Assembly (NCBI GenBank): GCA_016794465.1
Contig: JAEUKA010000053.1
Location: 83,999 to 147,998, forward strand
DNA length: 64,000 nucleotides
Source of the DNA: Myxococcales bacterium
Lineage (GTDB): Bacteria > Myxococcota_A > Polyangia > Palsa-1104 > JAEUJZ01
Reading direction: 5' to 3'
The notes under the pieces were generated by a model, which had not been told where the DNA came from, searched no databases, and saw only the letters and a program-made list of their open reading frames with translations. This document shows positions 2-51,358 of this stretch, piece after piece (position 1 is the stretch's first letter; the number at the start of each line of letters is the position of its first letter). The translations under genes were made by a program, and so were the position numbers.

Positions 2-820
2 GTGCGGGCGAGTCGCTCGTCGAGCACACCGCCGTCGCCACCGCCGGCAGCCGGGCAGCCGCCTGTCCCGGAAAAGGCCGCCTGGAAGTTCGCGGTCGAG
101 GTCTTTGATCCGTCGGTGGGCGACTTTTCGGGCCGTAGCTCGACGGGCTGCGACGACTGTGCGCCGGAGCAAGCCCTGCAGAGCGCGACGACGACGGTCG
201 GGACGGTCTTGCAGCAGGCGGCCAGTCGATCGCGGGGCAGCGTCGAGATCACCTCGCAGCCACCGGGCGCCGATGTCTTCTTGGCCGGTGAGAAGGTCGG
301 CGTGACCCCGTACAAGGCCAGTCGCTTCGTTGGCTCGGTGCCGGTCGAGGTTCGTCTGCTCGGGCGACCGCCGTTTACTGCGCAGCTCAACGTCGAGGCG
401 GGTCAAGTGGCTACCGTCGAAGCGCAGCTGACTACGCCCGGCGACGATGCACCAGAGCCTTCTCCGACGCTACCGCCGCCGCCCCCGAAGGCCATTGTCT
501 ATCGCACCGAGGTGGCGCCGCGTCCGAAGTGGCGACTGGCGCTGGGAGGCAGTCTGATCGGTGCGGGCGCGGTGGTGGCAGGCTTTGGCATTTCGGCGCT
601 GTCCATCGATGGCAATCCGGCTCCGTGTCTCAATGGTGTGACGGTATGTCGGCGGATCTACGACACCAAGTCGGTCGGTCGCGGCCTGGTGGTGCTCGGA
701 GTCGCGGCGGTGGTAGGTGGAGTGGTCACGATCGCCTTGCCCGGTCCCAAGCGACAGGTTCAAGTCACGGCGGCGCTGTCGCCCGAGTCGTTTGGGATGG
801 CGGCGCTGCTGCACTTTTAG
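2..820 (+). CDS. PEGA domain-containing membrane protein (5'-partial, runs off the window edge)
   Basis: Reading frame is open from the window start. The segment 'VEITSQPPGADVFLAGEKVGVTPYKASRFVGSVPVEVRL' is PEGA-like. The C-terminus has hydrophobic TM stretches. Stop at 818-820. Confidence 0.5.
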   Translation: MRASRSSSTPPSPPPAAGQPPVPEKAAWKFAVEVFDPSVGDFSGRSSTGCDDCAPEQALQSATTTVGTVLQQAASRSRGSVEITSQPPGADVFLAGEKVGVTPYKASRFVGSVPVEVRLLGRPPFTAQLNVEAGQVATVEAQLTTPGDDAPEPSPTLPPPPPKAIVYRTEVAPRPKWRLALGGSLIGAGAVVAGFGISALSIDGNPAPCLNGVTVCRRIYDTKSVGRGLVVLGVAAVVGGVVTIALPGPKRQVQVTAALSPESFGMAALLHF

Positions 821-870: not shown

Positions 871-2973
871 ATGGTGACGCGAGCCAAGCTTCCTGTTGGG
901 TTTGCTGTTTTTGTGGCACTGCTCTCCACTGCCGCCGCTGCTGCTGCCCCTCCACCGCCGGTGGTTGCGGTCAAAAAAGCTCCTGAGCCCGCTGCTGCAA
1001 TCGGGACTGCGCCCTCGCAGGTCACGCTGCCGCTGGCCGATTATCAGCAGCTGGTGGCGCGACCGGCGGTGACGGTGATCGAGACGCTCCGCGTCGAAGG
1101 CAGCTTCGAGCCGCGTAGTCTGTCAGTGACGCTGACGGGGCGGACGGCGGGCAGCGGGCCGACGGTCGAGGTCTTGGCAACCACGGCGGGCACTCGGCTG
1201 TGGGGCTGTGAAGGGGATGCGATCTTGTCGCGGGGCGGATCGGACAAGTACGAGCTGACGCCGCTTGCGCCACGCTTCTCGCTGCGCTGTCAGGTGGCAC
1301 TGCTGGGCGGTGATCGGCTGCAGCTCTCGACCTCGCCGCAGGTGCTGTGGATTGACTCGCAGGTTCGCGACGGTGAGCTGATTCGTGACGAGGAAGACGG
1401 CGGTAAGCAGCGACTGACGGTCGTGCATGTCAGCCGCGACCAGGCGGAAAAAGCGCTGGCGGTGTCGGCGGTGGGTCGCTATCACGTGACGCTGCTACCG
1501 GAAGGAGCGAGCTTTGTCTACACGCTGCTGGTGCGCAATCCCAACCGGGCTCATCAGCGCTTTGCAGTGGCGCCGCGCAGTGGCGAGCGGGTGCAGCGGC
1601 TCGACGCGGCGATCTCGTGCGAGCTGCAGACGGGAGAGTACGGCTGCAACGTGCCACCGGGAGAGCACACCCTGACCTTGCAAGGAAGCCTGCCGTCGAC
1701 GGCGTTTCGTCCGCCGGTACAGGCGAGTGCGCACTATCTGCTGCTCGATAGCCATCCGCTGCTGTGGCCCACCATCGAGACGGCGGTGCAGCGGCTGAGC
1801 GTGAGTGAGACGGGGATGACCCCGCAGTATCGCGGCGCGCAGGGCTTTTTGCTCGAGGATCGGCAGGTGGTGACGTGGCGGATCGGTCGGCTCGAGGCGC
1901 AGCGGACGCAGAGCTATGCGCTGACCTCGGCGGGGACGACGTTCTTCCTGGGCAGCGACGGTCAGGTCGTCGGAGAGACGACGCTGGAGCTGGACAACCA
2001 AGGGGCGGCGGAGCTGCTGTTGCCGATGCGAGCCGAGCCCAGCTATGCCAGCCTGCAGGGCGAGCCGCTGCTGCTGACCAAGAACGAAACCGGGTCGCTG
2101 GTAGTGCCGCTGTCCCAGGGCGCGCAGCGGGTGCAGCTGCAACATCATCAGCAGTTTTCTCGCACGCTGGGGATCGCGATCGGGACGCTGTGGCTGCCCG
2201 AGCTGACGGCGCCGGCGGCCTCGGCGTCGCTGGAGCTTCGTTACGAGCGCTCGTGGCTGCCGCTTTTTGAGGAGTTCTCGCCCGAGGTTCGCTTTCCCGC
2301 CGCGTCGATGGCAGAGCTGTTGCTCTTGCTGCTGCTGATGGGGATTGCCGAGCGACTGCTCAAAGCGCTGGGACTGTCGCCGGGGCTGCGGATTGGCGCG
2401 GTGGTGCTGCTCGGGGCAGCGGCGGCGGCAGCAGCGGTGTTTTTGGTGCTGCTCTGTCTGGGCGAGATGCTCGTCGCTGGACTGTATATCTTGCCGTGGC
2501 TGTTTGGGCAGCGGCGGATGTTCTGGCTGATCATCGGCGGACTGTGCCTTGGGGGAGTGTGGGCGCTGCTCTTCGGGTTGCTGCTCTTCGGGGGGAGGTC
2601 GTCTGACGCGCCGCCGGGTTCGAGCAGCGACGTGGCCTACACCCGCAAGGTCGCCAAGGAATCGAGCGGCTCTGACGAGACGGAAGGCAAGCCCAAGCTG
2701 CCGGCCCCGTCGTATCAGGGACTCCCCCCGCGTGAGACGATTCCGTGGGGAGCGCAGCGCAACCACTTCCATGGCGAGCGACTGGCGAGCGCTGGGCGGC
2801 CAGTGCAGGTGGTGATGCTGTGGCGACCGGCGGTGCAGCTTGTGGGAACCGCGTGTTTCTCGCTGGCGATGCTGCTTTTGGCGCTGCGCGGAGGCCTTCT
2901 GCGGATGGGCGTCAAGACTCGCTGGCGGCGGGTCCTCGAAGCCAAAGCTGCGTCGGAGAGTCCTTCTGCTTGA
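871..2973 (+). CDS. hypothetical secreted/membrane protein (N-terminal signal peptide, C-terminal multi-TM region)
   Basis: 700-aa ORF. N-terminal 'FAVFVALLSTAAAAAA' looks like a signal peptide. There are poly-L and poly-A TM blocks near residues 480-560. Codon usage is typical of a high-GC genome. I recognise no specific family. Confidence 0.45.
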   Translation: MVTRAKLPVGFAVFVALLSTAAAAAAPPPPVVAVKKAPEPAAAIGTAPSQVTLPLADYQQLVARPAVTVIETLRVEGSFEPRSLSVTLTGRTAGSGPTVEVLATTAGTRLWGCEGDAILSRGGSDKYELTPLAPRFSLRCQVALLGGDRLQLSTSPQVLWIDSQVRDGELIRDEEDGGKQRLTVVHVSRDQAEKALAVSAVGRYHVTLLPEGASFVYTLLVRNPNRAHQRFAVAPRSGERVQRLDAAISCELQTGEYGCNVPPGEHTLTLQGSLPSTAFRPPVQASAHYLLLDSHPLLWPTIETAVQRLSVSETGMTPQYRGAQGFLLEDRQVVTWRIGRLEAQRTQSYALTSAGTTFFLGSDGQVVGETTLELDNQGAAELLLPMRAEPSYASLQGEPLLLTKNETGSLVVPLSQGAQRVQLQHHQQFSRTLGIAIGTLWLPELTAPAASASLELRYERSWLPLFEEFSPEVRFPAASMAELLLLLLLMGIAERLLKALGLSPGLRIGAVVLLGAAAAAAAVFLVLLCLGEMLVAGLYILPWLFGQRRMFWLIIGGLCLGGVWALLFGLLLFGGRSSDAPPGSSSDVAYTRKVAKESSGSDETEGKPKLPAPSYQGLPPRETIPWGAQRNHFHGERLASAGRPVQVVMLWRPAVQLVGTACFSLAMLLLALRGGLLRMGVKTRWRRVLEAKAASESPSA

Positions 2974-3008
2974 CAGTGTACGGCTCAGGCTGTTAGGCCC
3001 AGGGCCGC

Positions 3009-3629
3009 ATGCGCATCTACTTTGTTGGTTCCCACGCTACCGGAAAGACCACCATGACTCGCTGGGTCAGCCGTCGCTACGGTCTGCCCATGATCACCGA
3101 GGTCGCTCGCGCTGTCCTTGCCGAGCTAGAGATCGATCTCGACTCGCTACGCACCGACATGGAGCGCGTCAGCGACTACCAAAGGCGGGTCTTCGAGCGT
3201 CAGATTGCGATCGAGCGGCTGCAAGAGAAGGGCTTTGTCTCCGATCGCGCGTTCGACAACCTCGCCTATGCCGCTGAGCACGCGCTGGTCCTCGGTGAGA
3301 TCATGTCCGGGCAGAGCGGCGAAGATGTCCGCAAGTACATGGAGTGGGTCGCCGAAGGAGTGGTGTTTTTCGTGCGACCGCATCGCTCGCTGCTGCGGGA
3401 AGACGGAGTCCGCGCCGGGGTCGATTGGGACTCGGTGGTGCGGATCGATGGCATGGTCAAGCTGCTGCTGGAGCAGTTCCGGATTCCCTATCTGCCGATT
3501 GATACCCCGTCGATGCAGGAGCGTGTGCGCGGCGTCGAGTTTGTACTCGGGCGGCTCGGTCTACAGCAGCAGGTCATCGAGCATGCGCCGCCGCAGCGCA
3601 ACATCGTGACGCTGGTCAAGCGCTCGTAG
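3009..3629 (+). CDS. P-loop NTPase (AAA_28 / NadR-C-terminal-like ATPase)
   Basis: Walker A 'GSHATGKTT' sits at the N-terminus. Size is 206 aa. Confidence 0.5.
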   Translation: MRIYFVGSHATGKTTMTRWVSRRYGLPMITEVARAVLAELEIDLDSLRTDMERVSDYQRRVFERQIAIERLQEKGFVSDRAFDNLAYAAEHALVLGEIMSGQSGEDVRKYMEWVAEGVVFFVRPHRSLLREDGVRAGVDWDSVVRIDGMVKLLLEQFRIPYLPIDTPSMQERVRGVEFVLGRLGLQQQVIEHAPPQRNIVTLVKRS

Positions 3630-3635
3630 GCGGTC

Positions 3636-4352
3636 ATGGCTCGTCGGTCGTCGCCGCCGTCGTCGGCCCATCACCTGCCCACCGTGGTAGAGGAAGTCCT
3701 CGCTGCGATTCCTCCGCTTCAAAAGCCACTCTTGCGCGGGGTGTCGCATCAGATCGCGTTCTTCCTTGCGTTTCCGCTTGCGTACTGGCTGGTTGGGCAG
3801 GCCGTTTCTTCGGAAGGAAGACTCTGCGCGATGATCTACAGTGCGTCGCTGATTGCCCTGTTGGGAGTGAGCGCGCTCTATCATCGCAAGCACTGGCAGC
3901 CGGCGGCGCGCGCCAAGATGAAGCGGCTCGATCACGCCAACATCTTCCTGTTCATCGCCGGCAGCTACACGCCCATTACCGTCGTCGGAGTCGGCGGTTC
4001 CTTTGGCAAGATCTTATGTGCGGTGCTGTGGATCGGGGCGCTGCTCGGAATTGGGCAGACTGTGTTTTGGCCGCAGGCGCCGCGCTGGCTGCATGTCGGA
4101 ATCTACGTCGTGCTGGGCTGGACCGGAGCGCTGGGACTGCCGATGGAGCTGCGCAATCTCGGACTCCAGACGGTCGCGCTGCACGTCGCTGGCGGCATTG
4201 TCTATACCCTGGGCGCGCTGACCTATGCCAAGAAGCGTCCCAATCCGCTGCCGAACGTCTTTGGCTATCACGAGGTCTTTCATCTGCTGGTGCTGATCGC
4301 CTGCGCAGCGCTGTTCGAGGTAGTCAGGCAATGCCTGCTTCATCCCGCGTAG
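3636..4352 (+). CDS. hemolysin III family (PAQR/YqfA-like) channel protein
   Basis: About seven hydrophobic segments. The C-terminal 'GYHEVFHLLVLIA' histidine motif is typical of Hly-III/PAQR. Size is 238 aa. Confidence 0.6.
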   Translation: MARRSSPPSSAHHLPTVVEEVLAAIPPLQKPLLRGVSHQIAFFLAFPLAYWLVGQAVSSEGRLCAMIYSASLIALLGVSALYHRKHWQPAARAKMKRLDHANIFLFIAGSYTPITVVGVGGSFGKILCAVLWIGALLGIGQTVFWPQAPRWLHVGIYVVLGWTGALGLPMELRNLGLQTVALHVAGGIVYTLGALTYAKKRPNPLPNVFGYHEVFHLLVLIACAALFEVVRQCLLHPA

Positions 4353-6025
4353 CGCCGTCCGTTTCGCTCTCTGTTTCGCTGGCTCTTGCGGCGGCACTGC
4401 TGGTCATTCATAGCCTTCAGTTCAACTTCGTCACCGACGATGCGTTCATCTCTTTTGTCTATGCCAAGAACTTGGTGAATCACGGCGCGCTGGTCTTCAA
4501 CTTGGGAGAGCGGGTCGAGGGTTACACCAACTTTTTGTGGACGCTCCTGGTGGCGCTTGGGCTGGCGCTACGGATTCCCGCCGAGCTGTCTTCCCGTGTC
4601 CTGGGAACTCTGTGTGCCGTCGCTACGATGGTATTTTCGGCCTGGCTGTTGCGGCGCCTGCGTGGCGGTTCCTATTCCTTGTGGGACTCGCTGCCGGCGT
4701 GGATCTTGGCGGGAATTCCCGGCTACGCGTGCTGGGCTTCCGGAGGCCTAGAGACGCAGCTCTTTGCCCTCCTGAGTACGCTTGCCATCGGTGGTTATCT
4801 GCATGCCGTGCTGACCGAAAAAGAGGCAGATAAGGCGCCTCTTATTGGTGTCGGAGTCGCGCTGGGCCTGGCGGCGCTAACACGTCCAGAAGGGTATCTG
4901 CTGTGTGCGCTGATCGGTCTGCATCGGCTGACTCTGAAGATCCAGCGGCGCGAGTGGTTGCCGACAAAAGAGGAGTGGAAGATGCTTCTTATTTTCCTTC
5001 TCCTGACGGTGCCGCACATTGTCTGGCGTCGCCTATATTATGGATACTATGTGCCTAATACGTTCTACATCAAGTCATCAGGAGGGCAGGGGACCTGGCA
5101 GCAAGGTGGCTACTATCTGTGGGCGTTTGCGCGCGATTTCAAGCTGTGGGTGCTGCCGCTGCTGTGGTTGTTGGGACTCCTGCGGCCCCTACCTGCATCA
5201 AGCCAGACCGCCATTCCCAACCAGCTTCCACAGTCCCAACAGAGTCCTGTGCTGGCGCAGACTCCGGAGTCATACAAGAGCGGTTACGGACTGTGTGGCG
5301 GACTCCTTTTGCTGTGGGCTGGGCCATTCCTTTTGTACGTCGCTTCCGTCGGTGGTGACTTCATGGGGCTGTATCGGTTTGTGATGCCGATTGTGCCTTT
5401 GGCGGTGCTCGCGGGCGGACTGGGAATCTGGCGACTCCTTCATGATCAACCGCTGCTGCTGCGGGTGGCGGTGCTGCTTTTGGGGGCGGGTCTGCATGGC
5501 GCCAATTCCTATGTGGTGGATCGGCATGCGCTGACGTTTCTTGGTGCCGATCGCGGCATTGATACACCGGGCTATCTGCGTCACTACACGGCGGACCGGG
5601 CGCTGATTGGCAAGTGGCTCGGGCAGCATGTCCAAAAGGATGACTACCAAGTCGTCGGAGGAGCGGGAGCGCAGGTCTATTACGCGGGGATTGCGGCGCT
5701 CGATAGCTTTGGACTGTCCGATGCCTATGTCGCGCATCACGCTCCGGCGGTGTCGAGTCGTCCGGGGCATCAGAAGTTTGCGCCGCTCGACTATGTGCTG
5801 TCGCGGAAGCCGACCATCCTGACCTACAACGTCTACAAGCTGGGCAACGCTCCGTATCGTCCGTCGGCGCAAGAGGAAGCAGAGTGGCGAGCGCGCGGCT
5901 TTCACTACGTCAGCGTGCAGATTCCCGGGCTGTCGCAGCCTTGGTATTCCTTTTTGAAGCGCGTGGATCGGACGCTCGGGCCGCTGCCGTTGGCGTCGGA
6001 CCTGAGCGGCGGAAGCGGTGGCTGA
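4331..6025 (+). CDS. polytopic membrane protein, putative GT-C-type glycosyltransferase
   Basis: The listed ORF 4016..6025 overlaps the upstream gene. The internal ATG at 4331 gives a signal/TM start 'MPASSRVAPSVSLSVSLALAAALLVI'. A 'DDAFISFVYAKN' acidic loop follows TM1, in the way of a GT-C DD/DE motif. There are many TM segments. Confidence 0.4.
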   Translation: MPASSRVAPSVSLSVSLALAAALLVIHSLQFNFVTDDAFISFVYAKNLVNHGALVFNLGERVEGYTNFLWTLLVALGLALRIPAELSSRVLGTLCAVATMVFSAWLLRRLRGGSYSLWDSLPAWILAGIPGYACWASGGLETQLFALLSTLAIGGYLHAVLTEKEADKAPLIGVGVALGLAALTRPEGYLLCALIGLHRLTLKIQRREWLPTKEEWKMLLIFLLLTVPHIVWRRLYYGYYVPNTFYIKSSGGQGTWQQGGYYLWAFARDFKLWVLPLLWLLGLLRPLPASSQTAIPNQLPQSQQSPVLAQTPESYKSGYGLCGGLLLLWAGPFLLYVASVGGDFMGLYRFVMPIVPLAVLAGGLGIWRLLHDQPLLLRVAVLLLGAGLHGANSYVVDRHALTFLGADRGIDTPGYLRHYTADRALIGKWLGQHVQKDDYQVVGGAGAQVYYAGIAALDSFGLSDAYVAHHAPAVSSRPGHQKFAPLDYVLSRKPTILTYNVYKLGNAPYRPSAQEEAEWRARGFHYVSVQIPGLSQPWYSFLKRVDRTLGPLPLASDLSGGSGG

Positions 6026-6091
6026 CAGCGGTCACGATTCGCGCTACAACGCCGACCTGTTTTCAAAACCTCAATCGAGACACACGACCCC

Positions 6092-6760
6092 ATGGAACTG
6101 CTGCGCTGGTTTTTTCACCTGATTCGCAACCCCGAGGACCTGATTGCCTCGGCGATCGCGACGGGATATCCGCTCCTGATCATGATGGCGATCATCTTTG
6201 CCGAGACGGGCGCAATGGTGTTTTTCCTGCCGGGCGACTCGCTGCTGGTGACGGCCGGGGTGTTTGCCGCCAATCCCAAGTACGGACTCGATCTGCTTCA
6301 GATGAACGTCGTGTTGTCGGTGATGGCGGTGCTCGGCGACGCGGTGTCGTACTACATCGGGAGACGGACCGGACCGGCGCTGTTTAATCGGCCCAAGTCG
6401 CGGCTGTTCAACCCCGAGCACATCAAGCAAGCGCACGCGTTTTACGAAAAACACGGCGGCAAGACCATCATCATTGCCCGCTTTATGCCGATCCTGCGCA
6501 CCTTCGTTCCCGTCGCTGCTGGCATTGGCGCGATGACCTACCGACGCTTTGCGCTCTACAACATCATCGGCGCGGTCAGCTGGGTGGTGTCGATGACCTT
6601 GCTCGGCTACTTCCTGGGCACGATGTTTCCCGCCATCGCCAAGCGCATCGAGCTGGTGATCATCTTGGTGGTGTTTGTGTCGATTCTTCCTGCCATCATT
6701 GCGTTTGTGCGCATGAGGCTTGGCAAAAAGGACAGCGACGCGAGCGCTCGTGGGGCGTAG
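6092..6760 (+). CDS. DedA/SNARE-associated (TVP38) family membrane protein
   Basis: Carries the 'VFFLPGDSLLVTAGVFAA' DedA signature. 222 aa with multiple TM segments. Confidence 0.7.
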   Translation: MELLRWFFHLIRNPEDLIASAIATGYPLLIMMAIIFAETGAMVFFLPGDSLLVTAGVFAANPKYGLDLLQMNVVLSVMAVLGDAVSYYIGRRTGPALFNRPKSRLFNPEHIKQAHAFYEKHGGKTIIIARFMPILRTFVPVAAGIGAMTYRRFALYNIIGAVSWVVSMTLLGYFLGTMFPAIAKRIELVIILVVFVSILPAIIAFVRMRLGKKDSDASARGA

Positions 6761-18954: not shown

Positions 18955-18980
18955 GACCGCATTGTGACACAGAAATCCCC

Positions 18981-19835
18981 TTACGGAGTGCGCACACCAT
19001 CCACCGGCACAAGCGGCGCCGGAGCCGGCTCGGGCTCACCAGGGTCGCGGCGGCGGCTCTGGCGGGCGCCTAGGGTGGGGACTTTTTCATCGACGGCCTC
19101 GCCGAACAGGTAGAAGCCGGCCTTGCGCAGCTCACCGTGCCGCAGCAAAAGCAGCGAGAAGATGCGATCACGCTCGTCCTGCGCCTTCTGCGCCGCCACC
19201 GCCACCGTCGTCCGCGCGCCATCGGGCGTGACCAGCTTCATCAGCGCATGTCCAAGCTCTGCCGTCCGCGCCACCTGCGCATCGGTAAACGGGTGCTTGC
19301 CGGCAATCTGACTGCGATACGCCCCATACAAGTCCGCCAGCGCCACCCCATCCTGCGCCGCATCAAACAGCCCCTTGCCAGCCCGGATTTGGGCGACCAG
19401 CGACTCGGGGATGATGCCTTCCAAGGCAAACACCTCGGCTTGCAGGAGCAGCTTCTCGCGCAGGCGCAAAAGCTCGGTCAGCTTGGCATCGATCTCGGCG
19501 CGCTTGGCGGGCTGGGTCAGCCGGGCTGCTTCGGCGTGGGCGTAGAGCAGCGCCTCGGCCAGCGTCTGGAGCTTGGCCAGCTCTGCGGTCGGCAGCTTGG
19601 GCAGCTCGGCGGCCAAGCGATCGAGGAACGGCTGCACCGACTGCACGCCCTGCTGGACGTTGGCGAAGATCAGGTTCACGTCGAGCCGAAGCGGCAGGAC
19701 CTTCTCTTGGGGCAGTGCCAGGGCCGCCGCCACAAACGCCTCGTAGCTCTTCTTGAGCGAGGGGGCGTCGGGCGCGGCGGGCACTGGCTTGGGTGAGGTA
19801 GGGGCGGGTGACTTGGTTGTAGGTTTTTTGGCCAT
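18981..19835 (-). CDS. hypothetical protein (start at the internal ATG 'MAKKPTTKS')
   Basis: The ATG at 19835 is preceded by a P/A/T-rich low-complexity N-terminus. No recognised domain. Lies upstream of the MoxR operon on the same strand. Confidence 0.4.
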   Translation of the reverse strand: MAKKPTTKSPAPTSPKPVPAAPDAPSLKKSYEAFVAAALALPQEKVLPLRLDVNLIFANVQQGVQSVQPFLDRLAAELPKLPTAELAKLQTLAEALLYAHAEAARLTQPAKRAEIDAKLTELLRLREKLLLQAEVFALEGIIPESLVAQIRAGKGLFDAAQDGVALADLYGAYRSQIAGKHPFTDAQVARTAELGHALMKLVTPDGARTTVAVAAQKAQDERDRIFSLLLLRHGELRKAGFYLFGEAVDEKVPTLGARQSRRRDPGEPEPAPAPLVPVDGVRTP

Positions 19836-20220
19836 GTCACCTGAGGTAGCACCAGATCTGCGCGGCGCAACCCTCAAGCCCAAAATAGTCACGACTCGAT
19901 CCTGGCACCTTCCAGCTTGCGGCCCCAAAGGCGCAGGTCTTCCCCCGCCACCTTGCGCGAGTCACCCCAGCAAGCTTCCGATCATCCCCCGCCGCAATCC
20001 GGTAGGCGCCCGCCAAGACCCAAGTCATCCCCACCGCAACCCGCTACCCACCCCCCCAAGACCCAAATCATCCCCGTGCGCCTTCCGCTAGCTGCCGGTT
20101 TCCTGCCGTGCCTGGTTGGGTTGTTTCCGACCGATGGGGTTTCGCTGAGCGACCGGCCCCAGCCTCGGCGCCGTGCCGCACGTTCTTGAGGCTGACTCGC
20201 TCGCGTGCTACGTCACCGCC

Positions 20221-21558
20221 GTGTACATCAAGACCCTTACCGCCCAGAACTTCCGCTGCTTTACCGACCTCCAGATCGACTTCCAGCCTGGCTTCAACCT
20301 GCTGATCGGCGACAACATGTCCGGCAAAACAGCAGTCCTCGACGCCCTTCGGATTTGTCTCAACGGATATGTGAACACGTTTTTTCAAAGCAAAATAGAT
20401 ATTGAAAAGCTCGATGCCAGGTTGCTTCCAGTTCCGATGGGTGATGCCGTCGAAATGGTAAGCCAGTCTCCTGCATCTGTTCTAGCAACGGTTGAGTTTG
20501 AACAGAAATTTCTGGACCTCTGCAAGAGCATTTTCCCTGTAATGTCACATGATGAATCTGTGAGAACATGGGGGCAGACGCTCGCATCGACCAAAGAGGG
20601 AACGGTTCTTACGAAGAAAGGTGGTTTGGGAGGGATTGGCGTACTTGCTCAATCTGCTATTTCAAATATTGAGCTGATGTTGCCGATCTTCTCATTTCAC
20701 TCTACCAATCGAAATACGCAACCTATTCCTAGCGCACAAAATGAACAGATAGAGCAATCGGCTTTGGCCAATCGAGGGCGGGGTTATTTGAACAGCTTGA
20801 GCCATTACTCTATTTTGCAAACTATACATTCGTGGATTGAGCGTCGTACAATGTCTGAGATGCAGCGGAAGGGGCGTGGACTTCCGCTGCTTGCGGAAGG
20901 GCCGTTGCTTGGAATCGAGCGCGCAGTGTGTACCTGTCTGCCAGAGGTGAAACAGTTCTACTTTGACTTCGATTATCAACAGCTAGCGATCGTGTTTGCG
21001 GACGGGCGGCGGCTGCCGGTGAGCATGCTGAGCGATGGGATGCTCTGTGTACTGAGTTTGGCGCTCGAGCTGGCCTGGCGGGCGGTGGTGTTAAACCCGC
21101 ACCTGGGGGCGCAGGCGCCAGAGCGGGCGACGGGGATTGTGATGATTGATGAGCTGGATCTGGCGCTGCACCCGACCTGGCAGCGGCGGATTGTGGCGGA
21201 TCTGTCGCGGGCGTTTCCCCGCTTGCAGTTCATTGCGACGACGCACTCGCCGCAGATCATCGGCAGCGCCAAGAATGCGCTGGTCCAGAAGATCGACGGC
21301 GACAAGGTGCAGGCGGTGGCGCGGCCCTATGGGCTGGACAGCAACACCCTGCTGACGGAAGTGATGGGCGCCCAGGAGCGCGACCCGGCGATCGTCAAGC
21401 TGTTTGAGAAGGTAAATGACCTCATGAACGACAAGCGCTGGGACGAGGCCCGCGCCGCCCTGGCCCAGGTCACCGACCAGATCGACAGCCTGGATACCGA
21501 GGTCGTGGATCTACGGACTCGTATCGACTTCCTAAGCCGAGCCGCCAAGCGGAGCTAG
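20221..21558 (+). CDS. AAA_21/AAA_15-type P-loop ATPase, Septu PtuA-like
   Basis: 'IKTLTAQNFRCFTDLQIDFQPGFNLLIGDNMSGKTAVLDAL' is an SMC/ABC-like Walker A N-terminus. '...IDELDLALHPTWQRRIVADLSRAFPRLQFIATTHSPQIIGS' is a Walker B / D-loop / H-loop C-terminus. The start is either GTG 20221 or GTG 20173. The central part of the gene is markedly lower GC. Confidence 0.55.
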   Translation: MYIKTLTAQNFRCFTDLQIDFQPGFNLLIGDNMSGKTAVLDALRICLNGYVNTFFQSKIDIEKLDARLLPVPMGDAVEMVSQSPASVLATVEFEQKFLDLCKSIFPVMSHDESVRTWGQTLASTKEGTVLTKKGGLGGIGVLAQSAISNIELMLPIFSFHSTNRNTQPIPSAQNEQIEQSALANRGRGYLNSLSHYSILQTIHSWIERRTMSEMQRKGRGLPLLAEGPLLGIERAVCTCLPEVKQFYFDFDYQQLAIVFADGRRLPVSMLSDGMLCVLSLALELAWRAVVLNPHLGAQAPERATGIVMIDELDLALHPTWQRRIVADLSRAFPRLQFIATTHSPQIIGSAKNALVQKIDGDKVQAVARPYGLDSNTLLTEVMGAQERDPAIVKLFEKVNDLMNDKRWDEARAALAQVTDQIDSLDTEVVDLRTRIDFLSRAAKRS

Positions 21559-21560
21559 CA

Positions 21561-22208
21561 ATGCGTCGTATCGAGAAACGACCAGAGCCCAGCTCGCTTA
21601 CGCGAGAGCGGATGGATGGGAACTGTTACGGCGATCTACGCAAAGAAACGCGGCAGGCGATACAGAAACAGCTCTGCGACGAACAGAAATATCTGTGTAG
21701 CTTCTGTGAAAGCCGCATCGAACCTGACGGGAAGTCGATGAAGATTGCCCACTTTGTGCCCCGCTCGGTGGACCAGTCGCTGTCTTTGGTTTGGCACAAT
21801 CTGTACGGTGCCTGTTACGGAAACGAACCTTCATCGAACCAAGCCGAGAGTGAGAAGAGTATTGCCAGGCGAGATGTTACCGAAGACGTTGCCTTGCACT
21901 GTGATGCCAAGCAAGGTAGCAAGTGTCTAGATACACGACTACGTCCCGACTCGATAGCCACTGGCCTGATTCAATTTCAGCAAGATGGTACGGTCTATTG
22001 CCAGGATCTCAATCTTGACAAAGATATAAACGCAAAGCTCAACCTCAATCATCCCCGGCTCAAGAAGAATCGTCTGCGTGCGCTCAAGCGTCTTATTGCG
22101 GACGAAACGCTAACCGGGATACCTGCTGACGAGCTGGTCCAGCAAGGGCTGGCGGACGACGGACGGCTGCGTCCCTATCTGAGCTATTTGCTAGCAATGG
22201 TGGGATAA
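21561..22208 (+). CDS. HNH (His-Me finger) endonuclease, TIGR02646/PtuB-like
   Basis: 'CSFCESRIEP...KIAHFVPRSVDQS...WHNLYGAC' is an HNH-family motif pattern. The ATG lies 2 nt after the ATPase stop, so the two genes form an operon. Confidence 0.5.
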   Translation: MRRIEKRPEPSSLTRERMDGNCYGDLRKETRQAIQKQLCDEQKYLCSFCESRIEPDGKSMKIAHFVPRSVDQSLSLVWHNLYGACYGNEPSSNQAESEKSIARRDVTEDVALHCDAKQGSKCLDTRLRPDSIATGLIQFQQDGTVYCQDLNLDKDINAKLNLNHPRLKKNRLRALKRLIADETLTGIPADELVQQGLADDGRLRPYLSYLLAMVG

Positions 22209-22233
22209 GTGGGAAGACCCGCTGAGCTAACCC

Positions 22234-23019
22234 CTACCCGTGCACCTTCTTGCCGAACTCTCTTATCCACTTTTCTTCTTCGGGGGTGAGGGGGCCTTTT
22301 TCTAGGGCGTCGAGGTTTTGTTCTAGCTCGGCGCGGCTGGCGGGGCCGGTGAGGGCGAGGTCGACGTGGGGGCTGGAGAGCTGGAAGCGGTAGCAGTCGC
22401 CGGCAGACATGACCGGGCCGTCCCAGCCGCGCGGGCGCTTGAGGAGCTTGCCCCAGCGGGTGGCGGTGTAGGCGAGGATGCTCGGCTTCTTGTCTTTGAC
22501 GTGGGGGAAGATGTCGCGCTCGGCACCGGGGTGGGCGGCGTTGTAGCGGATCATCAAGAGGTCGAGCGGGGACGAGGCGGCGAGCTGGCCGGCGCGCTCG
22601 CGGTTGTGGATGCTGCAGCCGATGGCGCGGACCTTGCCGCTCTCGCGCAGGTGGACGAGCTCTTTTTCGGTGGCGGCGGTCCAGGCCGAGGTGATGCCAA
22701 GCCAGCCGAGGAGGTACACGTCGAGGTAATCGACCTTGAGCTCCTTGAGCAGGTTCTCGGCGCCCTGGCGGACGCCCCAGCCGAACCAGCCGATGGTGCT
22801 GTAGCCGATGACGGCGACCTGCTCGCGGCGGCTGTGCAGGGCCTCGCCGAGGGGGGCGCGGAAGGGCTTGTTCTTCATCGTCCACAGGAAGACGTTGACG
22901 CCGCGCTCCATGGCGAGGCGGACGCCGGACTCGTCGATGCCGTAGTTGCAGGCGAGCCCGAGGCGGTGCAGCTTCTTGCTTGGAAACGCGGTCGGGTGTC
23001 GGTAGAGCCAGTCGGTCAT
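22234..23019 (-). CDS. aldo/keto reductase family oxidoreductase
   Basis: '...VDYLDVYLLGWLG...' AKR-like TIM-barrel motifs. 261 aa. Confidence 0.65.
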   Translation of the reverse strand: MTDWLYRHPTAFPSKKLHRLGLACNYGIDESGVRLAMERGVNVFLWTMKNKPFRAPLGEALHSRREQVAVIGYSTIGWFGWGVRQGAENLLKELKVDYLDVYLLGWLGITSAWTAATEKELVHLRESGKVRAIGCSIHNRERAGQLAASSPLDLLMIRYNAAHPGAERDIFPHVKDKKPSILAYTATRWGKLLKRPRGWDGPVMSAGDCYRFQLSSPHVDLALTGPASRAELEQNLDALEKGPLTPEEEKWIREFGKKVHG

Positions 23020-48864: not shown

Positions 48865-50493
48865 CTAGCGCAGCGGGACGTGCTCGCGGGCTGCGGCGAG
48901 GAGGCTGCCGTTTTCGCACAGGGAGCGCACCGCCTCGATCTCTTGGTAGAGGGGGCGGTCGCAGACCAGCTCGGGCACTCTCGACCGGACGACCCGATGG
49001 ACTGCGGACAGTGCGGCGGCTGGCATGAGGGGCGCTCGCAGCGAGATGCCTTGGGTCGCGCAGCACAGCTCAATCGCCAGCACGGTACGGACGTTGTCAA
49101 CGATGCGGGTCAGCTTGTCGGCGGCATGAACGCCCATCGAGACGTGATCTTCGCGCCCTGCCGACGAAGGAATCGAGTCCACCGACGCCGGATGCGCGAG
49201 GATCTTGTTCTCTGACACCAAGGCCGCCGCCGTCACCTGCGCAATCATGTAGCCGGAGTGAAGGCCGCTGTGGCGGACCAAAAACGCCGGCAGTCCCGAC
49301 GACAAGTGCGGGTTGACAAGCTGCTCGATGCGGCGCTCTGCGATGTTGGCCAGCTCGGCGGTGGCAATGGCCGCAAAGTCGAGCGCCTGCGCCACCGGCT
49401 GTCCGTGGAAGTTGCCGCCACTGACGATGTCAAAGCGCAGTCCGCCGCCGCCATCGCCGCCGCCATCGCCTGGGGCCGGCTCGTCCTCGACGAAGATCAG
49501 CGGATTGTCGGTCGCACTGCGCGACTCTTGCAGCAGCACATTCTGGGCGTAGCCGAGTCCATCGCGGGTGGCACCATGAACCTGCGGCATACAGCGCAGC
49601 GAGTACGGATCTTGGACCTTGCCGCAGCCACGGTGCGAATCGACGATCGGACTGTCCGCCAGGAGCGCGCGCAGGTTCTGCGCCGACACCGCCTGACCCG
49701 GCTGCGGTCGGGCGGCATGAATCCGGGGGTCAAACGCACGCGGCGTCCCGAGCAGGGCTTCCAGCGACATCGCCCCAATGACATCGGCGAGCGTACACAG
49801 ATCCAGCGCATCGGCGACGGCCAGCATTCCCATCGCGGTCATACACTGGGTGCCGTTGATCAGCGCCAGGCCTTCCTTCGCCGCCAGCACGATCGGCTGA
49901 AGCCCCGCCTCATCGTGAGCCTGCGCCGAGGTCTTGAGCTGCACCCGACCGGGCAGACCGACCTGCACCTCGCCTTCGCCGATCAGCCCGAGCGTCAGAT
50001 GCGCCAGCGGGGCCAGATCTCCCGACGCACCGACCGAGCCACGACTCGGCACGCAGGGCGAGATGCGCTGATTGAGCAGCTGACACAGGCGCTCTGCGAC
50101 GAAGAGCCGGACTCCACTGTGACCGAGCGAGAGCGTACAAGCGCGCAGCAGCAGCATCCCGCGCACCACCGGAATCGGCAGCAGTGGCCCCACCCCGGCG
50201 GCGTGCGAGCGAACCAAGTTGTACTGCAGCTCGACGATCTGCGTGGCCGAGATCCGGACATCGGCCAGAAAGCCAAAGCCGGTGTTGATGCCATAGACAC
50301 TGGCCGCGCTGTCTCCGCCTGCGATCAGCTGATCCACCACCGCCCGCGAGCGCTCGATCCGCTGCTTGGCAGCGTCGGAGAGCACGACCTCGCGACCTTC
50401 GTGACAGATCTGGCGCATCGCAGGGAAGTCCAGCTCATCGTGACCAATGCGGAACGGCGTGACGAGTGATCGGCTTGGCTTCGAGATCGACAT
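48865..50493 (-). CDS. histidine/aromatic amino acid ammonia-lyase (MIO enzyme)
   Basis: 'GSVGASGDLAPLAH' Ala-Ser-Gly MIO motif. 'VYGINTGFG' N-terminus. Start at 'MSISKPS' (50493). The listed 737-aa ORF runs upstream through the 21-bp tandem repeat and I treat that extension as an artefact. Confidence 0.8.
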   Translation of the reverse strand: MSISKPSRSLVTPFRIGHDELDFPAMRQICHEGREVVLSDAAKQRIERSRAVVDQLIAGGDSAASVYGINTGFGFLADVRISATQIVELQYNLVRSHAAGVGPLLPIPVVRGMLLLRACTLSLGHSGVRLFVAERLCQLLNQRISPCVPSRGSVGASGDLAPLAHLTLGLIGEGEVQVGLPGRVQLKTSAQAHDEAGLQPIVLAAKEGLALINGTQCMTAMGMLAVADALDLCTLADVIGAMSLEALLGTPRAFDPRIHAARPQPGQAVSAQNLRALLADSPIVDSHRGCGKVQDPYSLRCMPQVHGATRDGLGYAQNVLLQESRSATDNPLIFVEDEPAPGDGGGDGGGGLRFDIVSGGNFHGQPVAQALDFAAIATAELANIAERRIEQLVNPHLSSGLPAFLVRHSGLHSGYMIAQVTAAALVSENKILAHPASVDSIPSSAGREDHVSMGVHAADKLTRIVDNVRTVLAIELCCATQGISLRAPLMPAAALSAVHRVVRSRVPELVCDRPLYQEIEAVRSLCENGSLLAAAREHVPLR

Positions 50494-50589
50494 AGCGGCG
50501 TTCGTAGCACAGGGTCGGGGGATGTGTATTTTTCGCGGCTTTCTCTGGCGTCGCCGCCGCTGAAGGTGCGGTTTGTGCACTGTGGGCTC

Positions 50590-50725
50590 TTGCAAAGGAA
50601 AAAACCTGGCGGTTTTCTCCTTTGGAACCTCTTTCCCTTTGCGGACCTGAGAGGTCAACCCCCCCATCCCCCCTTGGAAGGGGGCAGCCCCTAACCCCAG
50701 CCCTTTCCCCGCTGGGGGAAAGGGA
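50590..50725. other. cluster of GC-rich hairpins in the ammonia-lyase upstream region
   Basis: Three paired elements. 'caaaggaaaaaacc'/'ggttttctcctttg' (50593-50624). 'ccccctt gg aaggggg' (50669-50684). 'ccctttcccc gctg ggggaaaggg' (50701-50724), a perfect 10-bp stem. Confidence 0.35.
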
Positions 50726-50818
50726 GCACGAGCCTCGGTGGAGGCTTTGGATGTAAACAGAGCTTTCGCTGACTTTGGGTTGTCTGGGCTCGCTTCGCTT
50801 TGCTTCCTGTTGCGGACA

Positions 50819-51222
50819 CTGGGCAAGACAAAACAAACCCCGGGCAAGACGAACCAGACACCGGGCAAGACAAAACGGACCCCGGGCAAGACGAAACGGA
50901 CCCCGGGCAAGACGAAACGAACCCCGGGCAAGACAAAACAAACCCCGGGCAAGACAAAACGGACCCCGGGCAGGACAAAACGGACACCGGGCAAGACGAA
51001 ACAAACACCGGGCAAGACAAAACGAACCCCGGGCAAGACGAAATGGACACCGGGCAAGACAAAACGAACCCCGGGCAAGACAAATCAAACACCGGGCAAG
51101 ACGAAACGAACACCGGGCAAGACAAAACGGACACCGGGCAAGACAAAACGGACACCGGGCAAGACGAACCGAACCCCGGGCAAGACGAAACAAACACCGG
51201 GCAAGACAAAACGGACCCCGGG
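50819..51222. repeat. tandem repeat, 19 copies of a 21-bp unit (consensus ccgggcaagacRaaacRRacM)
   Basis: Head-to-tail units, every one exactly 21 bp. Substitutions fall at fixed positions. A-rich, atypical for the genome. Open in all six frames. Confidence 0.9.
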
Positions 51223-51358
51223 CTGTATTTTTTTGGGTTCTTGCTTGCGTGGCTGCTGGCGACTGTGGAATCGATGAAGAGACAGCTATCCGCAGAAATG
51301 GCCGGTAACGCCGCTTGGATCTTCTTCGTGGGACCGAGACGGCAAGGAGGCAGTGCAG

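Follow-up and report, generated by a model that had tools for sequence, protein, structure and literature searches.

The question raised by the DNA considered here is whether two adjacent genes in an uncultured myxobacterium make up an anti-phage system in their own right, a part of some other defence system, or no defence system at all. The stretch comprises 64,000 nucleotides (nt) of a Myxococcales bacterium (assembly GCA_016794465.1, contig JAEUKA010000053.1, positions 83,999 to 147,998 of the forward strand) and is referred to as the window, meaning the whole of it; all coordinates without a contig label are positions within the window. The two genes encode an ATPase of the ABC/SMC type and a small HNH nuclease, an arrangement known from Septu (PtuA and PtuB). 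An earlier note, made from the letters alone, had described two neighbouring open reading frames (ORFs) separated by 2 nt, with a set of ATPase and HNH motifs, as resembling Septu; both ORFs, their spacing and all the quoted motifs are indeed present in the translations. The answer reached in the present analysis is that the locus is very probably a stand-alone type I Septu system, whose module (about 20114-22228) consists of ptuA, preceded by a short region of its own and followed by ptuB, which is translationally coupled to it. Every trait of type I Septu for which the tests gave a clear outcome was found, while the traits that define type I-A retrons were absent.

The identification of the first gene is supported by profile, domain, sequence and fold comparisons that agree with each other. 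The ORF runs on the forward strand to 21558 from either of two GTG codons (20173 or 20221), and the longer version of 461 amino acids (aa) is an extension made by gene callers. The likely start is the GTG at 20221, because it is where the profile and structure alignments set in and because the equivalent MHIKTL forms the N-terminus of several homologs. The PADLOC model for PtuA (PDLC00278) matches with E=1.4e-97 over residues 18-453 of the 461-aa ORF, corresponding to positions 2-427 of the 436 in the model, and the Pfam domains AAA_15, AAA_21 and SMC_N all score above their cutoffs, with neither a TOPRIM nor any other nuclease domain detected by Pfam. Among solved structures in the PDB, the closest sequence is that of the stand-alone Escherichia coli Septu PtuA 8ee4 (E=2.7e-40, residues 3-413). 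The AlphaFold2 model, built with 68 homologs, has a mean predicted local distance difference test score (pLDDT) of 94.2 and a predicted template-modelling score of 0.91; in a Foldseek search of the PDB with this model, the E. coli Septu PtuA chains come first (8eea, E=2e-30, template-modelling (TM) score 0.77-0.78), above every retron PtuA. The Walker A, Walker B (VMIDE, residues 307-311) and H-loop motifs are intact, and their key residues are invariant among the 68 homologs (Table 1).

The second gene, ptuB, begins 2 nt past the ptuA stop codon, with a GGAG sequence 6 nt upstream of its ATG, and ends with the stop codon at 22206-22208. Its product is matched over its full length by the PADLOC PtuB model (PDLC00322, E=5.2e-40) and clears the curated cutoff of TIGR02646 (57.5 versus 52.15 bits). 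The nuclease motifs CSFC (residues 46-49), HFVPR (64-68) and WHNL (78-81) are all present, and allele alignments show C46, C49, H64, C85 and C114 to be invariant and N80 nearly so. Four of these residues (C46, C49, H64 and C85) align with C43, C46, H57 and C78 of Eco7 PtuB, and C114 probably corresponds to Eco7 C90, judging by the allele alignments; the third and fourth Cys are separated by a loop that exceeds that of Eco7 by about 17 aa. Eco7 PtuB no longer confers defence when H57 or the four Cys are mutated (PMC12673091). Further conserved patches are KLNLNHPRLKKNR and a C-terminal GRLxxYxSxLLAMV. The top ten fold matches of the PtuB structure model, which is poor (pLDDT 64), are all PtuB chains, with TM scores of 0.35-0.49, and Cas9 HNH domains come after them. 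Both PtuA and PtuB are predicted to have three helices at the C-terminus, in the case of PtuB from this weak model. The pairing of ptuA and ptuB recurs in every homologous locus examined (L014, L017, L020, L041 and L042, where such labels denote contigs or loci), while the neighbouring genes vary and no third core gene appears. The Septu architecture put forward in the earlier note is therefore borne out by full-length PADLOC matches of both proteins, TIGR02646 above its cutoff, AAA_15/AAA_21 and 8eea as the best fold.

Comparison with the E. coli Septu systems (8EE4, 8EE7 and 8EEA; Septu EcB88) places the locus within the family and also indicates how far it lies from the characterised members. 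Both are ptuA-ptuB operons without a reverse transcriptase (RT); the PtuA proteins are alike in length (about 450 aa), fold, Walker A, Walker B and H-loop motifs and the three-helix C-terminal extension, and the PtuB proteins are alike in combining an HNH nuclease, a zinc finger and a helical C-terminal domain. The present system differs in its high-GC (guanine plus cytosine) myxobacterial host, in a PtuA identity of only 24-27% and in a PtuB whose sequence search of the PDB does not reach E. coli Septu PtuB. The last two points count against the reading proposed here, as do several others: PtuB has no Pfam match and the poor structure model mentioned above, a sigma-70 consensus scan did not call a promoter in the leader upstream of ptuA, and no empty version of the genomic slot described below was present among the contigs found, so that insertion is inferred from replacement. 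To these is added that the support for Septu function is based on sequence and models, host and phage being uncultured, and that the Septu and retron PtuAB systems in the literature are at odds over the target (DNA or tRNA-Tyr) and over ATP hydrolysis.

Apart from stand-alone Septu, homologous ATPase and HNH pairs occur in type I-A retrons (Retron-Eco7/Ec78 and Retron-Eco4/Ec83), and the locus might accordingly be the effector half of such a retron (Ec78/Eco7 or Ec83) whose RT and non-coding RNA have been lost or are encoded elsewhere. In PtuB, both have the catalytic His and the four Cys that bind zinc, and docking through C-terminal elements is probably the same. The NCBIfam models for retron Ec78 PtuA and PtuB do match, but partially: the PtuA model (NF041760) reaches 191.7 bits, where the cutoff is 500, and covers the C-terminal half only (residues 248-452), while the PtuB equivalog reaches 87.6 bits against a cutoff of 150. 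Similarly, the PADLOC retron I-A models give matches (ATPase_I-A, E=2e-57; HNH_I-A, E=2e-30) and the best PDB sequence matches for PtuB are retron PtuBs, whereas the retron PtuAs in the PDB align with the C-terminal half of PtuA only, its best full-length matches being the stand-alone Septu proteins 8ee4 (by sequence) and 8eea (by fold). The architecture of PtuA also departs from that of the retron proteins, as it has 445 aa instead of 550 and is devoid of the N-terminal domain of about 63 aa and of the coiled-coil/helical flap; these two elements adapt retron PtuA to multicopy single-stranded DNA (msDNA) (PMC12819146, PMC12673091). Furthermore, the annotation of contig L001 has no RVT-domain gene within about 10 kilobases (kb) on either side, an Rfam scan of the whole window gave no match, the 284-aa neighbour is without RT similarity and no RT was present in any homologous locus examined, in accordance with the absence of RT and msr/msd reported in the earlier note. 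With the equivalog scores far below cutoff, no RT within about 10 kb, no Rfam match and stand-alone Septu as the best match, the retron reading was rejected and is regarded as scarcely credible.

Equally hard to credit is the proposal that the pair belongs to some other ATPase-plus-nuclease defence system (Gabija, PARIS, OLD/AbiL-like or HEC-type) and merely cross-matches the Septu models. The AriA, GajA, Old and MADS3 models match PtuA weakly and partially, mainly at the Walker A or Walker B regions, and their E-values are weaker than those of the Septu models by tens of orders of magnitude. A true HEC-02 pair does fill the same slot in sister strains; nevertheless, the partner of PtuA in the window is an HNH protein of the TIGR02646 family, not a TOPRIM protein or a helicase, and PtuA itself has no TOPRIM domain. 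HEC-02, a PADLOC candidate system, is like the present module in having two genes of which the first encodes an AAA_15/AAA_21 ATPase, in using the same slot and in a similar left junction motif. It is, however, not present in the window, its partner protein is not of the HNH/TIGR02646 kind and its genes belong to different hidden Markov model families.

Table 1. Positions of the module, its parts and the genes that border it (residues are numbered from the GTG at 20221 for PtuA).
Feature	Position	Residues	Strand	Evidence
284-aa hypothetical gene, left slot anchor, outside Septu	18981..19835		-	ORF
Shared intergenic region upstream of the 284-aa gene, present with or without Septu	19836..20113		.	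98.98% identical in L023, which has HEC-02 only
Left junction motif CCGTGCCTGG	20104..20113		+	Alignments of the window, L014 and L023 junctions
Septu-specific 5' non-coding region	20114..20220		+	Missing from HEC-02-only contigs
ptuA, 445-aa ABC/SMC-type ATPase, putative Septu sensor and scaffold subunit	20221..21558		+	Profile, Pfam, PDB and fold matches
PtuA NFRCF		10-14	+	Peptide located in the translation
Walker A GDNMSGKT	20308..20331	30-37	+	G35 and K36 invariant, 68 homologs
Hypervariable low-GC PtuA core in ATPase head lobe I, flanked by the Walker A helix and the conserved LPxxxxxGTxR strand	20380..20820	54-200	+	Allele identity, third-position GC
Walker B and D-loop VMIDELDLALHP	21139..21174	307-318	+	D310, E311, H317 and P318 invariant, 68 homologs
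H-loop TTHSP	21238..21252	340-344	+	H342 and P344 invariant, 68 homologs
PtuA C-terminal three-helix extension	21385..21555	389-445	+	Helices 389-403, 407-420 and 426-444 in the model
ptuB, 215-aa HNH (beta-beta-alpha-metal) nuclease with zinc finger	21561..22208		+	Profile and PDB matches
PtuB HNH and zinc-finger core, including hypervariable loop 88-111	21696..21905	46-115	+	Eco7 PtuB alignment
25-bp spacer, ptuB stop to convergent reductase stop	22209..22233		.	Right edge of variable cargo at about 22219-22228
Aldo/keto reductase gene, right slot anchor, outside Septu	22234..23019		-	Pfam Aldo_ket_red; stop at 22234-22236

The genomic setting of the Septu module provides a second line of evidence, since the place that it occupies is filled differently in close relatives. 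Sister contigs were found by exact-protein look-up of both flanking genes and were compared with the window by BLAST; a scan of metagenomes with an alignment of the 284-aa family added at least one locus (L040), and a scan of reference-genome contigs with the 284-aa protein returned only distant, non-syntenic homologs (38% identity). Four states of occupancy were observed between the 284-aa gene and the aldo/keto reductase gene. The first is ptuA-ptuB (the window, L001-L010, L024, L028, L031 and L036-L038), the second a divergent ptuA-ptuB followed by HEC-02A/B (L014, L015 and L040), the third HEC-02 only (L022 and L023, and by gene layout also L025-L027 and L033-L035) and the fourth a pair of co-oriented 182-aa and 160-aa genes overlapping by 8 nt (L021 6186-7209 and L043 5594-6617). 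The flanks of L022 and L023 are 99-99.9% identical to those of the window, and their cargo replaces exactly 20114-22228. The HEC-02 genes of L014 (3037-4683) were recognised by PADLOC (A, E=2e-120; B, E=1e-31), and the assignment of those in L022 and L023 rests on 95% identity to this L014 copy. The 182-aa and 160-aa pair has no match in PADLOC, Pfam or NCBIfam and is, by guilt by association, a candidate for an uncharacterised defence system. Contigs with an identical 284-aa protein have Septu next to it in some cases and HEC-02 in others, an identical reductase protein flanks Septu, HEC-02 or the 182-aa and 160-aa pair in different contigs, and different occupants co-occur within each of two samples (SRR23073212 and JGI 3300056999).

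The same slot can be followed into more distant lineages. L044, whose flank protein is 70% identical, retains the whole synteny with an HEC-02-like pair at 4986-6644 (judged by gene sizes and AAA_15/AAA_21), and L017 and L041, with flank proteins 61-65% identical, carry Septu in the slot. The description of the locus in the earlier note as a foreign insertion thus holds as far as its accessory nature is concerned, and the check set beforehand, on whether the pair is conserved at this position in all relatives, found it missing from the contigs with 99-99.9% identical flanks; a one-off recent insertion, on the other hand, is contradicted by the presence of Septu in the slot of lineages with a 61-65% identical flank protein. 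The convergent aldo/keto reductase gene with 25 bp between the two stop codons, also described earlier, agrees with the coordinates, and a terminator scan found no terminator-like hairpin in this spacer.

The absence of the pair from such closely related contigs also bears on whether it serves defence. PtuA and PtuB might instead be a selfish addiction module, or a housekeeping DNA-repair pair of the RecF/RecN/SbcC kind, with no role against phage. The N-terminus of PtuA resembles the heads of RecF, RecN, Rad50 and SMC proteins, although the matches to repair proteins are confined to some 45 residues surrounding Walker A; in E. coli, PtuAB is toxic when its retron is missing (PMC12819146), which fits toxin-like behaviour, whereas the stand-alone Septu systems tested do protect against phage (PMC13096335). 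As the pair is missing from contigs with 99% identical flanks it is not a housekeeping gene pair, and the slot is shared with other defence candidates. A non-defence role is, therefore, improbable.

The comparisons of contigs indicate that the Septu module is accessory cargo in a long-lived polymorphic defence slot of an uncultured Polyangia/Myxococcales lineage. This is the pattern of a core defence hotspot, as reported for Pseudomonas aeruginosa (PMC10250203). The features in common are conserved flanking genes, varying defence systems and no integrase or transposase nearby; here, the annotation of L001, L043 and L044 shows neither gene within 7-10 kb on either side of the slot, and a tRNA scan of the window found none. 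The slot differs from the P. aeruginosa hotspots in belonging to Myxococcota, in being known from metagenome contigs and not isolate genomes, in having an array of 42-44-nt repeats at one border and in being accompanied by a second variable slot across the 284-aa gene. This second slot lies between the 284-aa gene and MoxR (gap at about 18955-18980 in the window) and holds a Septu-like pair in L043 (7853-10272), L021 (8454-10017) and L040 (5219-6716), comprising a 455-aa protein with AAA_15/AAA_21 like PtuA and a PtuB-like protein of 351 aa (PDLC00339, E=7e-44); this position is empty in the window, which leads straight into a MoxR-DUF58-BatA operon. At the left edge of each cargo module stands the motif CCGYGCCTKG (L014 at about 793-802 and 2988-2997; L023, as the reverse complement, at 1368-1377), and the right flank of the window has a looser version of it (CCGTGCACCTT) at 22238-22248. 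The motif may be a recombination site or a microhomology, the junctions being few and no recombinase being nearby.

Within the module, composition and allelic diversity are distributed in blocks. The GC content is 0.47 at 20250-21000 compared with 0.66-0.69 in the flanks, and 20001-21000 is the kilobase of lowest GC in the 64 kb. At third codon positions (GC3), PtuA has values of 0.79 for residues 1-53, 0.44 for residues 54-200, 0.68 for residues 201-297 and 0.85 for residues 298-445; PtuB (21561-22205) has 0.58 and the neighbouring genes 0.76-0.92. The earlier statement that the composition of the locus is unlike that of its flanks is accordingly correct for residues 54-200 of PtuA and for PtuB, and incorrect for the ends of PtuA (Walker A on one side, Walker B to the C-terminal extension on the other), which are conserved and have host-like codon usage. 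The same pattern of GC3 blocks is seen in the L014 and L017 alleles and not in the more distant L020, where GC3 is 0.80 throughout.

Divergence between alleles follows the same boundaries. The mean pairwise identity of PtuA among 7 alleles is 0.80 for residues 1-53, 0.25 for residues 54-200, 0.78 for residues 201-297 and 0.83 for residues 298-445, and the PtuB alleles are 51-59% identical to the PtuB of the window. Sliding comparison of the window with L014 at the DNA level gives 91-98% for the flank, the leader and the first 150 or so nt of ptuA, 41-50% for 20412-20811, 90-97% for 21112-21511, 55-74% for ptuB and 93-100% for the reductase gene; overall, the core is 28-57% identical to that of L014, as against 91-99% on either side. 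A search of 1.84 billion representative proteins with PtuA residues 54-200 gave no match at E<=0.001, and no donor lineage can be named. The core is modelled as beta-strands and helices with block-mean pLDDT values of 73-98; as it is variable in sequence yet confidently modelled, the fold is kept while the sequence changes fast.

A decaying or inactive remnant, with the low-GC divergent core as a region of relaxed constraint, would also fit the extreme divergence of residues 54-200 and PtuB, their atypical codon usage and a core without a detectable homolog. Both ORFs are intact, however, with all catalytic residues conserved; the core has the same length among alleles besides its confidently predicted fold, and the conserved-variable-conserved pattern recurs in at least 7 alleles without frameshifts. 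Moreover, a public assembly collection has the exact PtuB protein in 34 of its indexed blocks (23 contigs were read). Decay is thus a very improbable explanation of the locus.

The mosaic structure of one further locus indicates how the blocks of Septu may be exchanged. L040 (ptuA at 2644-4029) matches L014 at about 100% identity in the leader, in ptuA towards its 3' end, in ptuB and in HEC-02, and matches the window at 96-100% across 20212-21110. It is a natural recombinant, with a PtuA core of the window type on an L014-type backbone together with L014-type PtuB and HEC-02, an assembly chimera being the alternative; the PtuA core and PtuB therefore reassort. From the alignments, at least the PtuA core has passed from one backbone to another, the conserved arms having served for homologous recombination. 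The origin of the core from a diversity-generating retroelement or a silent cassette was also considered and was rejected, as the 64-kb window lacks a further copy of any module part, contains neither inverted nor silent cassettes and has no RT. The low GC3 of the core could reflect foreign or lower-GC donors, or else old balanced alleles that escape GC-biased conversion for lack of internal recombination.

The position of the variable block allows a bolder proposal, which is possible though rather doubtful: residues 54-200 of PtuA may form a swappable specificity cassette that chooses the phage cue or the nucleic acid, with the conserved ends of ptuA as homology arms that allow exchange among co-existing strains, independently of PtuB, L040 as one such chimera and the low GC3 as a mark of old balanced alleles. 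Rapid divergence may equally result from relaxed constraint on a surface-exposed insert, which speaks against the cassette. For comparison, retron PtuA touches msDNA with loops of its helix-grip fold, one of which is longer in the stand-alone protein. Should the proposal be true, the sensor of Septu would be modular and comparable to the target-recognition domains of HsdS, the subunit of type I restriction systems in which such domains are shuffled. The similarity lies in a variable segment within one gene, placed between conserved arms and movable by recombination, for which L040 provides an example. Differences are that the two families are unrelated, that the window has no inverted or silent cassettes and no linked recombinase, and that a role of the segment in specificity is a conjecture.

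The non-coding region upstream of ptuA can be divided between the Septu module and its neighbour. The 385-bp C-rich leader reported in the earlier note is real (19836-20220), but only 20114-20220 belongs to Septu, the rest being retained at about 99% identity in contigs without ptuAB. This retained part carries an array of four degenerate repeats of 43-44 nt (19922-20095, core TCATCCCC), which TRF at default stringency did not pick up. Tandem arrays with a period of 42-44 nt and about 2-6 copies lie upstream of every 284-aa homolog examined (down to 38% identity), including those of non-syntenic genomes without Septu nearby; their coordinates are 708-866 in L017, 7324-7543 in L021, 1671-1863 in L041, 6684-6930 in L043, 6746-6939 in L044, 6504-6843 in L045 and 9626-9824 in L011. 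Period and position of the arrays are conserved while the sequence drifts, and small inverted repeats are often included (for example GGATGATCC paired with GGATCATCC, or CGCAAA-CCTC-TTTGCG). The array looks like an operator, an iteron or centromere-like element, or a structured 5' untranslated region. Since it is retained without Septu, the C-rich leader belongs to the neighbouring gene or to the border of the slot and not to Septu. A Septu-specific regulatory RNA or repeat element in the leader was rejected as a candidate, given that 19836-20113 persists without Septu and that the arrays occur in non-syntenic genomes. As for the neighbouring gene itself, the 284-aa protein has no match in Pfam, PADLOC, NCBIfam or the PDB, and its family counts 42 members, all hypothetical proteins, of which the named ones are from metagenome-assembled genomes of Myxococcales. 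The part of the leader that is specific to Septu contains a conserved block consisting of TTCTTGAGG (20183-20191), 17 nt, TACGTC (20209-20214) and 6 nt before the GTG start. Its conservation in L014, L017, L041 and L042 despite diverged surroundings suggests a candidate promoter that would give a leaderless or nearly leaderless mRNA.

The mode of action can be outlined by analogy with the systems studied so far. PtuAB has been described as an ATP-inhibited DNase with a 6:2 assembly of PtuA and PtuB (PMC12673091, PMC12819146), and one stand-alone Septu cleaves tRNA-Tyr and needs its Walker A, Walker B and HNH residues (PMC13096335). In the present system, PtuA would bind ATP, oligomerise and hold PtuB through the C-terminal helices of PtuA, and the HNH nuclease of PtuB would stay inactive until infection. 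The extension formed by residues 389-445, which is among the conserved parts of PtuA here, is presumed to be the docking element for PtuB; in solved PtuAB complexes, PtuA's C-terminal extension contacts PtuB's C-terminal domain (PMC12819146, PMC12673091). A phage protein or other phage cue, or a drop in ATP, would then unleash the nuclease, and PtuB would cut phage DNA or a tRNA, whereby phage production would be stopped. As the published systems disagree with one another, their mechanism is not transferable in detail.

As a Septu system the locus is nothing new in kind, and it adds an uncultured high-GC myxobacterial lineage to the range of a well-studied family. What makes it valuable is natural variation, as the occupants of the slot and a series of alleles, which differ almost solely in PtuB and a single PtuA segment, are available in one set of public metagenomes. 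In stand-alone Septu, the trigger (ATP depletion or a tail fibre) and the target (DNA or tRNA-Tyr) are both disputed, and the alleles constitute a ready-made series of chimeras for finding which part of the complex sets specificity.

Elsewhere in the window, a tandem repeat occupies 50821-51223, with a unit of 21 nt (GGGCAAGACAAAACGAACCCC), 19.2 copies and 86% matches. Translated, it would give a repeating unit of 7 aa in several ORFs that overlap one another, and its place is at the 5' end, or upstream of it, of a long ORF on the minus strand (48865-51078).

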